A stretch of 64,000 nt of DNA from an uncultured Bacilli bacterium (GCA_963931305.1 OZ006994.1:218955-282954), one strand, 5' to 3'. Shown: positions 55,199-57,874, counted from the first letter of the stretch. Notes: a model not told the origin generated them from the letters alone. Numbers and translations: made by a program.

Positions 55199-56722
55199 AT
55201 GGATACAGTATTTCGATTTTTATATGAATTTTTAAGCCAATTTTTTGGAAGTATTTTAACTGTTTTAATTGCTTGTGTACAAGGTTTAAAACAGATGTTT
55301 GATTTTAAAGCTTATTTACGTATTTTAGATTTTTATAAAGAAGATTTTCAAGGACCAGAGTGGTTATTTGTTGCTTTAGTAATTCTATTTTTAGTAGTAA
55401 TTGTTGTTGGATTTGCTTTACTAATTATCTTTTTGATTCGTAAATATATACGTTTTCGTAAGACTTTGGTAGAACAAGAAGAATTATTAAATGAAGTGGC
55501 GAAACTAAATGATGAAGTATCTAGTTTAGTAAAAGAAAAAGAAGATATTTTAGCTATGAAAGTATCTCATTTAGGATTAAAGCCAAATGAAGCAGATACA
55601 GAAGAAGTAGAGGAAACACAAGAAGAAAATGTCAATGCGGATGGAATTCGTTTTGCGAAATTAAATGAAGTAGATTTAGCGTATGCGAATTATACGATAA
55701 AAAATTACAATGATAATTTTACGTTACCTGAGTTAGTAGAATTATTTCGTAATTTTGCGGCAAGTCGTTTGAAACTATATTATAAATCAGAAATGATTCG
55801 TATTTTTATATCTGCGCTTGCTTCGACAAAATTAATTATTTTACAAGGTATTTCTGGTACTGGTAAAACATCTCTTGCCTATGCGTGGGGAAAGTTTTTA
55901 AAACATGATTCTTGTATCGCATCAGTACAACCATCTTGGCGTGATCGTACGGAATTATTTGGATATTTTAACGAATTTACAAAAAAGTTTAACGAGACAG
56001 AAGTTTTAAAAGTAATTTATGAAGCAGGATATACAGATGATGTTTATACAGTAATTTTGGATGAAATGAATATTGCCAGAGTAGAGTATTATTTTGCTGA
56101 AATGTTATCTATTTTGGAAATGCCAAATAAAGATGAATGGGTGGTTGAACTTGTATCTAGTAGTTGGCCAAACGATCCGAAAAAATTAATTGATGGTAAG
56201 TTAAAAATTAGTCCAAATACTTGGTATATTGGTACAATCAATAACGATGATTCTACATTTATGGTTACTGATAAAGTATATGACCGTGCTATGCCAATTG
56301 ATATTAATGATAAAGGAGAAGTGTTTGAACCAATTGATACACCTGCTCAAGATGTGAATTATTCTTATTTAGACCGTTTATTTCAAGAAGCAATGGAACA
56401 AAATCCAATGAGTGATGAAGTATTAAAGAAAATAGAAGAAATGGATAATTATGTCATTAAACATTTCCGTATTGCATTTGGTAACCGTATTGTGGCTCAT
56501 ATGAAAAAGTTTGTTCCTGTTTATATGGCATGTGGTGGTGATGAAGTAAGTGGTGTTGATTACTTTATTGCGAAAAAGATTTTGCGTAAATTTGAACAAT
56601 TGAATGTTTCTTATATTCGTGATGAAATTGATGGATTTGTAGAATTTTTAGATAATACATTTGGTAAAGGAAAAATGAAAGAGTGTGAAGAATACGTTCT
56701 AAGATTAAAGAAATTAACATAG
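55199..56722 (+). CDS. membrane-anchored McrB-family AAA+ (AAA_5) GTPase/ATPase
   Basis: Two N-terminal TM helices, coiled coil, Walker A GISGTGKTS, McrB-type Walker B ILDEMNIARVEYYFAEMLSILE (cf. IDEINRAN...FGEL), sensor-1 WYIGTINNDDSTF (cf. IGTMNxxDRS). Confidence 0.7.
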   Translation: MDTVFRFLYEFLSQFFGSILTVLIACVQGLKQMFDFKAYLRILDFYKEDFQGPEWLFVALVILFLVVIVVGFALLIIFLIRKYIRFRKTLVEQEELLNEVAKLNDEVSSLVKEKEDILAMKVSHLGLKPNEADTEEVEETQEENVNADGIRFAKLNEVDLAYANYTIKNYNDNFTLPELVELFRNFAASRLKLYYKSEMIRIFISALASTKLIILQGISGTGKTSLAYAWGKFLKHDSCIASVQPSWRDRTELFGYFNEFTKKFNETEVLKVIYEAGYTDDVYTVILDEMNIARVEYYFAEMLSILEMPNKDEWVVELVSSSWPNDPKKLIDGKLKISPNTWYIGTINNDDSTFMVTDKVYDRAMPIDINDKGEVFEPIDTPAQDVNYSYLDRLFQEAMEQNPMSDEVLKKIEEMDNYVIKHFRIAFGNRIVAHMKKFVPVYMACGGDEVSGVDYFIAKKILRKFEQLNVSYIRDEIDGFVEFLDNTFGKGKMKECEEYVLRLKKLT

Positions 56723-56725
56723 TGG

Positions 56726-57874
56726 GTGAGAAATATGGAAGATATTGTTAAAGTTTATAATCAAGCATCAATTGTGCAAAGAGAAAACTTTAAAAAGGGA
56801 TTGGTTTCTAATTTACATGTAAAAAATAAATCTAATTCTTCTTCTTATGATGATACTTGGTTAGTAAAAATGGAGGAAACAATTCGTTATTTAGATAACA
56901 TTTTAAGAAATCCTAATCGTTTTATTATCAATGAAGAAGAAATTGTAAAAATTGAATTAGCTAGACGTATTACAGTAGATAGTATTAAACATTTATCACG
57001 TAATACCAATTTAATTCAAGATTATGATAAAGATACAGGAGAAGTAAGACCTTCTAAGATATTAAACATCAATAAAGAAGAAACATTTAATACATATGAA
57101 AATCGTTTTATTTATACCTTGATTAATAATATGAAGTTGTATATTGAAAGAAAGAAAAAGGAAGATATTTCAGATAGTCAATTAAAAGAATATAAGAATT
57201 TTACATATCAAGGAAAAGGTAAATTGAAAGATGAAACAGTAGAACTTTCATTACAATTAACTGGTAGAAAAGAAAAGGGACGTAATTTAAAAGAAGGAGA
57301 ATCTATTCCTGATAGAATCAAGAAAATAGAAGAACGTATTCGTGATTTATGTTCATCTGATGTATATAAAAATATTGCGAAATTGCATGTTGCACCAGTG
57401 ACTTCTCCGATTAAGAAAACAAATTTGATTTTGAAAAATGTAAATTTTCAATATGCGCTTGATTTGTGGAATTATATGCAAGCAAATATGGATCCTAGTT
57501 CTAAAAGTAATCATGTGAATCAAGATTATGAAGATCAAGGAAAATTAAAAGATATGATGGATCAATCATTTCTACTGAATTGTTTAATTATGGATACTAT
57601 GAATCAAAAAGAAGTTACGAAAGAAGAACAAGCATCTTTACAAGAGGAAGTAGTAAATCAATCTGTTAATCAATTAATGAATATTAGTGATCAATTATCT
57701 TTGGAAGAATTAGTAAAATTAGTTGGTGACCAATATATGAAAGTAAAATATAAGAAAGTTTTAGATACGAGTGAGATTGAACGTATTTATAAAAAAGCAA
57801 TTCATGATTATATGGATAAAGTAGAACATTTGAAGGTGAAAAAGAATGAAAGTAGTCAAGAAGATATGGGATAA
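56726..57874 (+). CDS. uncharacterised partner of the McrB-like NTPase (McrC-position protein without an obvious PD-(D/E)xK nuclease motif)
   Basis: 382 aa, starts 4 nt after the NTPase stop and overlaps the sipW start; helical, charged; FNTYENRFIYTL segment. Confidence 0.4.
   Translation: MRNMEDIVKVYNQASIVQRENFKKGLVSNLHVKNKSNSSSYDDTWLVKMEETIRYLDNILRNPNRFIINEEEIVKIELARRITVDSIKHLSRNTNLIQDYDKDTGEVRPSKILNINKEETFNTYENRFIYTLINNMKLYIERKKKEDISDSQLKEYKNFTYQGKGKLKDETVELSLQLTGRKEKGRNLKEGESIPDRIKKIEERIRDLCSSDVYKNIAKLHVAPVTSPIKKTNLILKNVNFQYALDLWNYMQANMDPSSKSNHVNQDYEDQGKLKDMMDQSFLLNCLIMDTMNQKEVTKEEQASLQEEVVNQSVNQLMNISDQLSLEELVKLVGDQYMKVKYKKVLDTSEIERIYKKAIHDYMDKVEHLKVKKNESSQEDMG

Follow-up and report, generated by a model that had tools for sequence, protein, structure and literature searches.

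The subject of this work is a putative membrane-anchored GTPase of the McrB family and its McrC-like partner, which are encoded next to each other (55199-57874) in a stretch of DNA of 64,000 nucleotides from an uncultured Bacilli bacterium (GCA_963931305.1 OZ006994.1:218955-282954). The whole stretch is called the window, and all coordinates are counted in it. The map of open reading frames (ORFs) showed that both genes belong to a run on the + strand from 52779 to 58998, in which genes for proteins of 169, 308, 326, 507, 382, 199 and 200 amino acids overlap or almost abut. This run is followed by one convergent gene for a protein of 196 amino acids and by three + strand genes up to the end of the window. 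A terminator scan found no terminator-like hairpin inside 52779-58998; such hairpins are located at 51664-51686 (strong, 3' of the gene at 50241) and at 58985-59006, between convergent genes. The gene coordinates and the tight + strand run reported earlier by a model that had only the DNA at hand (the sequence-only reading) are in agreement with this map. The G+C content is ca. 26-32% throughout the window with no compositional break at the gene cassette, and a promoter scan of this AT-rich DNA gave 86 sites where 94 are expected, i.e. no excess over chance.

The gene at 55199-56722 (+ strand) encodes a protein of 507 amino acids, annotated here as a membrane-anchored AAA+ GTPase of the McrB family. 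The McrB signatures that the sequence-only reading had ascribed to it (Walker A, Walker B and a post-sensor-1 box) are all present and conserved. The Walker A (GISGTGKTS) and Walker B (ILDEMN) motifs are invariant in 33 orthologues and are also conserved in the family representatives shown, the I-N-N-D-D-S-T box of the window protein is invariant or nearly so in the same orthologues, and in the segment D-K-V-Y-D-R-A the Arg is invariant. In the wider family the post-sensor-1 motif reads G-T-x-N348-x-D350-(D/E)-S-T, with N348 and D350 invariant in 142/142 aligned representatives and position 349 varying freely. By this signature the protein is an N-x-D variant, as in the CoCoNuT/CoCoPALM branch, in contrast to the classical N-x-x-D. 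The only sequence matches in the PDB were to E. coli McrB (three entries); they are weak and extend from Walker A to past sensor-1 (E=0.0037 when the single sequence was the query, 5e-4 when a profile of 33 sequences was used). In PADLOC, the candidate model PDC-M26A matched the ATPase core (5.6e-35; residues 192-314 of the query, positions 314-437 of the 724 in the profile). The assignment to the McrB family, as claimed earlier, is supported by these two matches and not by Pfam: AAA_5 gave no match to the window protein at E<=0.1, where only sub-threshold P-loop and FtsL/DUF948 matches appeared. AAA_5 does match a distant relative, L088 (26 bits, cutoff 22). Membership of PDC-M26 itself was rejected, as only the ATPase core matches and the partner and neighbouring proteins match no PADLOC model.

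The first 150 residues of the McrB-like protein are composed of a transmembrane (TM) segment, a helical stalk and an acidic linker. Of the two N-terminal TM helices proposed in the sequence-only reading, the strong helix at ca. 56-80 stands, whereas the segment 9-30 is only weakly hydrophobic. The strong helix is clear in the window protein and in all seven distant membrane-anchored relatives. It is followed by RKYIRFRK, which by the positive-inside rule would place the ATPase domain in the cytoplasm. No DNA-binding family matched residues 1-150, as the earlier claim that such a domain is lacking would have it. Among 28 N-terminal segments of the family, FtsL matched 12 and DivIC (FtsB) matched four, all below the Pfam cutoffs, and a crude home-made heptad score for coiled coils, applied to the N-terminus and to the McrC homologue, did not rise above shuffled sequences and is uninformative. 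As judged from sequence, we conclude that in this McrB-family GTPase the DNA-reading N-terminal domain has been exchanged for a membrane anchor and a helical stalk.

The following gene (56726-57874, + strand) encodes a McrC homologue of 382 amino acids, which is predicted to consist of a DUF2357 N-terminal domain, a β-hairpin and a helical C-terminus. In classical McrBC, GTP hydrolysis is stimulated by the DUF2357 domain, which inserts into the McrB hexamer. The window protein matches Pfam DUF2357, the McrC N-terminal domain, with 2.3e-12 and above the gathering score, so that it is a real McrC/DUF2357 homologue rather than an unclassifiable protein. Among the matches listed, 119/119 full-length homologues carry PF09823 (DUF2357) only. 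Conservation is concentrated at residues 42-136 and 221-248; after W248, F282 is the sole invariant residue in 40 sequences, with no conserved acidic or Lys residues. A PD-(D/E)xK motif is therefore absent, which confirms the earlier description of a protein in the McrC position that has no such nuclease, and a canonical nuclease-bearing McrC was not found in the 56726 protein. The AlphaFold2 model (predicted local distance difference test, pLDDT, 63) is a helical bundle with a long β-hairpin (152-185), long helices at 194-220 and 273-367 and an all-helical C-terminus; hairpin and helices are of moderate to low confidence and the crude heptad test was negative. These alignments indicate that the partner has retained the DUF2357 domain and lost the PD-(D/E)xK nuclease. 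Translation of this gene probably begins with the ATG at 56735 and not with the GTG chosen by the ORF finder, because a GGGTGA Shine-Dalgarno sequence precedes this ATG and the nearest orthologue has 379 and not 382 amino acids. The gap to the stop codon of the McrB-like gene is then 12 nt instead of the 4 nt given before. A similar case is the gene at 58396, whose closest cluster representative has 197 and not 200 amino acids.

Two genes of the run are related to signal peptidases. The product of the gene directly after the McrC-like gene (57846-58445, + strand, 199 amino acids) was earlier called SipW. It scores 76.2 bits against TIGR02228 (cutoff 51.85) and its Ser and His boxes are conserved across the orthologues; it is by these features a genuine SipW, i.e. 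a predicted active signal peptidase I of the archaeal/endoplasmic reticulum type. The first gene of the run (52779-53288, + strand, 169 amino acids) encodes a homologue of this SipW (hhalign probability 98.2%) with TM helices at both ends, which scores 28.8 bits against TIGR02228, below the cutoff. The catalytic Ser (S-M-x-P box) and His (T-H box), found in at least 90% of the true SipW orthologues, are absent and unconserved in the 52779 family. Read from the alignments, this family is a conserved pseudo-peptidase, in which both catalytic residues were lost family-wide and both TM helices were kept; we call it pseudo-SipW. It calls to mind SipA, a pilus assembly factor in S. pyogenes, which according to PMC4049620 is a catalytically inactive signal-peptidase-like protein essential for pilus polymerisation.

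Between pseudo-SipW and the McrB-like gene lie two genes for unknown proteins, both on the + strand. The 308-amino acid protein u53269 (53269-54195) has a TM-like segment at 12-37, a putative N-terminal membrane anchor, and a predicted extracytoplasmic domain in which Cys and aromatic residues are conserved; C103, C109, F50, F52 and Y285 are among the invariant positions, and no PDB or Pfam relative was found. The 326-amino acid protein u54207 (54207-55187) has no TM segment and is predicted to be cytoplasmic. It is poorly conserved, with a median identity of 33% and only three invariant columns in the alignment, and gave no credible Pfam or PDB match. Its residues 256-293 show a β-α-like consensus, GY.FA..LDD.F. 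This consensus, and an EAL protein in the locus of a distant relative (L086), raised the idea of a degenerate EAL domain, which was rejected: hhalign against the L086 EAL protein gave 0.1% and none of 34 family members had a Pfam EAL match. A match of the same residues to the designed TIM barrel 7mcd (E=3e-6) was also discarded as spurious and probably compositional, as no aligned stretch passes alone.

The remaining genes of the locus encode proteins that are predicted to be secreted. The last gene of the run (58396-58998, + strand) encodes a putative fibre subunit of 200 amino acids, with an N-terminal anchor helix and an invariant A-W-F motif. According to its confident model (pLDDT 83), the N-terminal helix is followed by a low-confidence linker (35-47) and a β-sandwich (50-194). 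Cleavage is predicted after A32, and the mature protein would start with ca. 17 flexible residues ahead of the β-sandwich. The convergent gene (59007-59597, - strand, 196 amino acids) encodes a paralogue, similar to the 58396 family over the full length (hhalign probability 93.6%). The 60899 gene (60899-61882, + strand) encodes a secreted protein of 327 amino acids, whose signal motif reads T-x-Y-A-W-F and whose C-terminal box, W-x-E-G-Q-D-V-D-C-E, is conserved; A30, W31, F32 and this C-terminal motif do not vary in its family. The invariant A-W-F tripeptide directly after the hydrophobic N-terminal helix is common to the 58396 and 60899 families. The protein encoded at 60175-60915 (+ strand) is membrane-anchored or secreted, with a TM segment at 29-61, and its C-terminal 35 residues contain a motif that is also present in the 60899 family (hhalign 85%). 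The last gene (61897-64000, + strand) runs off the window and encodes a large secreted protein of more than 701 amino acids with an N-terminal hydrophobic anchor.

The sequence-only reading had called the fibre proteins TasA-like. None of the 58396, 59007, 60175, 60899 and 61897 proteins has a Pfam match, the 60899 protein has no PDB match, and PDB profile searches of the fibre proteins gave nothing relevant. Sequence membership of the TasA/camelysin family (Peptidase_M73, PF12389) was not found for the fibre genes, nor did a fold search find a TasA-like jelly-roll in their products, so that the label finds no basis in sequence or fold similarity. On the other hand, the description as SipW-dependent secreted β-sandwich proteins, with cleavage predicted, is justified by the A-W-F motif, the paralogy, the 58396 model and the adjacent genuine SipW. 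The A-W-F motif presumably resembles the signal motif of TasA and camelysin. The flexible mature N-terminus modelled for the 58396 protein could act as a donor strand.

To examine conservation, one genome per species was scanned, which yielded 250 loci encoding relatives; the counts below refer to the best 80 of these 250. These 80 relatives are all from uncultured gut Bacilli with small genomes, labelled Tenericutes, Mycoplasmatota, Acholeplasmataceae, Erysipelotrichaceae or 'Clostridium sp. CAG-xxx', along with evidently mis-binned names. Wherever the contig reaches, the gene order is the same in 80/80 loci: (pseudo-SipW), u53269, u54207, the McrB-like gene, the McrC-like gene, SipW and the 58396 family, with median gaps between the genes of -9 to +11 nt. 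Pseudo-SipW is present in 55-64 of the loci, u53269 in 73 (always directly upstream of u54207), u54207 in 73-77 and SipW in 77-78, directly after the McrC-like gene. Downstream of the 58396-family gene, the 59007, 60175 and 60899 families are usually next, with 65-68, 48 and 66 occurrences, respectively, and the 61897 family is found in 34 loci. The sequence-only reading had asked whether the cassette travels with sipW and the fibre genes; in the 80 genomes examined it is never apart from them. The genes that flank the operon in the window were found again in only 1-8 of the 80 loci, and therefore the operon and not the chromosomal position is the conserved unit.

The McrB-like protein is 71-96% identical (median 76%) to its 80 species-level orthologues. 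The median identities to the window of the other proteins are 50% for the McrC-like protein, 46% for u53269, 44% for SipW, 41% for the 58396 family and, as mentioned, 33% for u54207. Compared on the same contigs with Der, an essential GTPase, the identities of the McrB-like protein and Der were 76 vs 71, 75 vs 68, 76 vs 69 and 89 vs 89%. On these figures the McrB-like protein is under purifying selection comparable to that on Der, being as conserved or more so. Full-length homologues (coverage >=80%) were found in none of 50,697 phage records and none of 72,556 plasmid records. In one relative (L017, Clostridium sp. CAG:451, ca. 8046-9566) the McrB-like protein is split over two adjacent ORFs, 75% and 88% identical to the window protein, which is a frameshift pseudogene or an assembly error. 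Many relatives (L007, L008, L010, L014, L016-L019, L022, L023 and others) harbor a second upstream module with pseudo-SipW-like, 59007-like, SipW-like and 60899-like genes. It lies directly upstream of the core cassette and gives these genomes two SipW/pseudo-SipW pairs.

The genes upstream of the run are ordinary housekeeping genes, with a class A penicillin-binding protein (ponA) and RecU on the opposite strand, followed by an EngB-like GTPase (engB) and Der. The organism makes peptidoglycan, since it encodes the penicillin-binding protein. Between der and the fibre operon lies a gene for SpoVIF (stage VI sporulation protein F; 51746-51988, + strand, 80 amino acids, 79 bits in Pfam); the der-spoVIF pair adjoins the operon in 5/80 relatives, and the labels Tenericutes or Mycoplasmatota are frequent among the relatives. 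The gene at 50241-51665 (+ strand) encodes a peripheral secreted protein of 474 amino acids, whose membership of the system is uncertain, with an N-terminal anchor and a C-terminal DUF6273 (33 bits, Pfam cutoff 23.5). It is found in only 2/80 relatives and is therefore probably a lineage-specific extra substrate. Its N-terminal region contains ITSNWKIL, which resembles VASWKIL of the fibre paralogue encoded at 59007 on the - strand.

An exhaustive HMMER search of 1.84 billion cluster representatives gave 756 clusters at E<=1e-30, which include full-length relatives of ca. 500 amino acids down to 35% identity as well as many proteins of 550-870 amino acids that share only the core. Genomic contexts were sampled for seven distant membrane-anchored relatives with 35-50% identity. 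In four of these (L082, L083, L086 and L087), SipW and 60175/60899-like genes adjoin the McrB-like gene: the 60175 family is present in L082, L083 and L087 and the 60899 family in all four, where the L083 protein also bears the TYAWF motif. In L081 the u54207 family is present and the sequence stops short of the expected sipW position. The cassette of L086 contains a genuine EAL domain protein (3396-4373, Pfam 181 bits) between the McrB-like gene, whose product is 50% identical to that of the window, and the McrC-like gene; this hints at control by cyclic di-GMP (c-di-GMP), since EAL domains are associated with its turnover. The McrC-like protein of L087 (2681-4036, 451 amino acids) has a C-terminal Ribosomal_L27A/L15 match (55.6 bits), an odd fusion or an artefact of gene calling or assembly. 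A tandem variant is found in L088 (5988-10503) and L089 (5692-10482), where two membrane-anchored McrB-like ATPases flank one McrC-like gene for a protein of 556-604 amino acids; it adjoins genes for LRR_5-containing and giant (1141 and >1800 amino acids) membrane-anchored surface proteins. The nearest non-anchored relative (L084, 372-9270) is an ATPase of 745 amino acids that has no TM helix, shares ca. 41% core identity and has a DUF2357 partner of 650 amino acids. Its cassette follows two UPF1-like helicases that match the PADLOC models for MkoA of Mokosh (up to 256 bits), and by this arrangement the layout is of the CoCoNuT type.

The sequence-only reading held that neither a McrBC-like module in a fibre operon nor an NTPase machine for fibres had been described. 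This does not hold, since Bell et al. 2024 (eLife 13:RP94800; PMC11090510, section 7) describe CoCoPALM as NxD-type McrB GTPases with an FtsB-like TM/coiled-coil region, which are associated with proteins of the signal peptidase family and with a McrC homologue that usually has a coiled-coil segment. CoCoPALM was named in 2024 on the basis of one paragraph of genomic inference and has never been studied. The window locus has an NxD GTPase, an N-terminal TM and helical segment, an adjacent DUF2357 McrC homologue and signal peptidases; it appears to match the published CoCoPALM architecture, and nothing tested contradicts membership. What goes beyond the main text of that paper are the nuclease-free partner, the dead and active SipW, the two conserved unknown genes, the β-sandwich substrates and the Der-like conservation of the ATPase, and a term search of its supplements gave no match. 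The literature search found no follow-up CoCoPALM paper and nothing linking SipW with DUF2357; the sole co-occurrence of SipW and McrB was an E. coli strain genotype.

Similar to classical McrBC of E. coli and T. gammatolerans, the window pair consists of two adjacent genes with a matching AAA+ GTPase core. It differs in having N-x-D instead of N-x-x-D, a membrane anchor in place of the DNA-binding domain and a partner that has no PD-(D/E)xK motif, and in being embedded in a secretion/fibre operon with the conservation of a housekeeping gene. With CoCoNuT systems (CnuB/CnuC and the helicase CnuH) the window pair shares the NxD GTPase clade, with ca. 41% core identity, and the DUF2357 partner, whereas the CoCoNuT-type relatives have no TM helix, have longer N-termini and longer partners (650 amino acids) and lie near UPF1/MkoA-like helicases, where the window has SipW and secreted proteins. 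A sipW gene beside genes for secreted paralogues with motifs near the predicted cleavage site is also the arrangement of tapA-sipW-tasA in B. subtilis and sipW-bsaABC in C. perfringens, but for the fibre proteins of the window no similarity to TasA or camelysin was detected, neither in sequence nor in fold. To our knowledge, the tapA-sipW-tasA operon contains no McrB/McrC-like gene or dead SipW paralogue, unlike the window. The same holds for the list of the genes sipW-bsaA-bsaB-bsaC in PMC11580942. This paper also describes donor-strand fibres, whose subunits have a flexible N-terminus ahead of a β-sandwich, as would the 58396 protein, and reports that in C. perfringens the SipW-dependent proteins BsaA and BsaC rely for their secretion in part on type IV pilus genes, including that for the PilB2 ATPase. 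With type IV pilus and Tad systems, the window would share, by functional analogy only, a dedicated peptidase, subunits that have a hydrophobic helix at the N-terminus, an NTPase hexamer at the cytoplasmic side and platform proteins in the membrane. No component is homologous: the NTPase is of the AAA+/McrB and not of the PilB/VirB11 type, and the Ser/His peptidase SipW stands against an aspartyl prepilin peptidase.

From the comparisons above, the McrB/McrC-like pair is a fixed part of one operon with active SipW, dead SipW, an anchored extracytoplasmic protein, a small cytoplasmic protein and secreted A-W-F β-sandwich proteins. We think it probable that the locus is of the CoCoPALM type and contains a McrBC motor repurposed for the biogenesis of surface fibres. 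A housekeeping role in surface-fibre formation is favoured over defence by the linkage in 80 genomes and in 4/7 distant relatives, the Der-like conservation and the absence from phage and plasmid records; we infer that in this lineage the locus has a conserved cell-surface function and is not a mobile anti-phage module. The sequence-only reading offered both, a defence module inserted in the operon or an NTPase machine that assembles or secretes the fibres; the former is disfavoured, and the latter, tied to SipW-dependent proteins, agrees with the present evidence and with the published genomic inference. In such a machine, a hexamer of the GTPase, tethered to the membrane and in complex with the McrC-like protein, would lie at the cytoplasmic face. 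Its GTP hydrolysis would drive or gate a step by which SipW substrates become a surface fibre, namely their processing, their extraction from the membrane or their polymerisation. Pseudo-SipW may serve as a platform or chaperone. The logic would resemble that of the type IV pilus machine, in which a peptidase and subunits with an anchor helix are combined with a hexameric NTPase and a platform in the membrane.

Several observations weigh against a role of the pair in fibre biogenesis. So far, a function has been assigned to CoCoPALM only by genomic inference, in one paragraph, the signals for FtsB-like and coiled-coil features stayed below the thresholds, and the model of the McrC-like protein is only of moderate confidence. 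Furthermore, in classical McrBC the pore of the hexamer is occupied by McrC, so that a substrate-threading mechanism is not obvious. Within the sequence examined, L088 and L089 have no sipW; the L081 cassette (721-4341) lies directly downstream of phage-like DUF859 and Phage_holin_1 genes, which may be a prophage end or a real association; and the closest non-anchored relatives belong to CoCoNuT-like loci, predicted defence systems that encode UPF1/MkoA-like helicases. The last two points, together with the descent of the family from type IV restriction systems and the PDC-M26A match, would fit a non-canonical McrBC-like defence or abortive-infection module, in which the anchored GTPase senses a cue from an invader and, having no nuclease, acts via the membrane or SipW, the fibre genes being mere long-standing neighbours. 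We regard this as unlikely, because no nuclease, other recognisable effector or nucleic-acid-binding domain was found, the PADLOC match is limited to the ATPase core and the partner matches no defence model. Defence genes usually have patchy, fast-evolving distributions, whereas here the gene order is fixed in 80/80 species, the ATPase is as conserved as Der, the full-length gene is absent from the phage and plasmid records searched, and the linkage to sipW and fibre genes recurs at 35-50% identity.

The pair might also be a regulatory switch rather than a motor, i.e. McrB/McrC would serve as a checkpoint or timer by which SipW cleavage is licensed or the amount of fibre is set, and would do no mechanical work, possibly sensing a cytoplasmic signal via the 54207 protein, or c-di-GMP in relatives. 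We know of no NTPase that is needed for the assembly of TasA-type fibres in Bacillus, the L086 cassette has an inserted EAL protein, the poorly conserved cytoplasmic u54207 counts as a constant partner (73-77/80) and McrC is the GTPase-activating partner in McrBC (Bell et al. 2024 introduction, PMC11090510). However, the extreme conservation of the whole AAA+ module with its hexamer-type motifs fits an active oligomeric machine equally well. A switch would be a variant and not the opposite of the fibre machine proposed above, and the data do not discriminate between motor and switch; as a separate explanation we consider it rather improbable. Very unlikely is an envelope, division or sporulation machine, whose FtsL/FtsB-like N-terminus would target the septum or forespore and whose secreted proteins would form a spore or septal layer. 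The FtsL and DivIC similarities (12/28 and 4/28 N-termini) are weak, below Pfam cutoffs and typical of any bitopic TM-plus-helix segment, and spoVIF, located 0.8 kb upstream in the window, is a weak hint; the der-spoVIF pair adjoins the operon in only five of the 80 loci, and the cassette is linked to no further genes for division or sporulation.

McrBC is the textbook example of a GTP-dependent restriction system. A branch that lacks DNA recognition and cleavage, is membrane-anchored and is fixed in a fibre operon would clearly exemplify how a motor of defence can be recruited for surface biogenesis. The parts list proposed here forms a concrete cassette, comprising pseudo-SipW, two unknown proteins, the GTPase, a nuclease-less McrC, SipW and β-sandwich substrates with the A-W-F motif. 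In a bolder and more tentative version, which we consider possible rather than probable, the domesticated membrane-tethered McrBC would act with SipW and pseudo-SipW in the GTP-driven extraction and polymerisation of anchor-helix subunits, as a new class of filament machinery and a core organelle of a large lineage of uncultured gut Bacilli. If this is true, it would be a filament machinery functionally analogous to type IV pili and built from unrelated parts. Since Der-like conservation extends over at least 80 species and relatives occur in 250 species-level genomes, the system is probably important for surface building or attachment of these common gut organisms.

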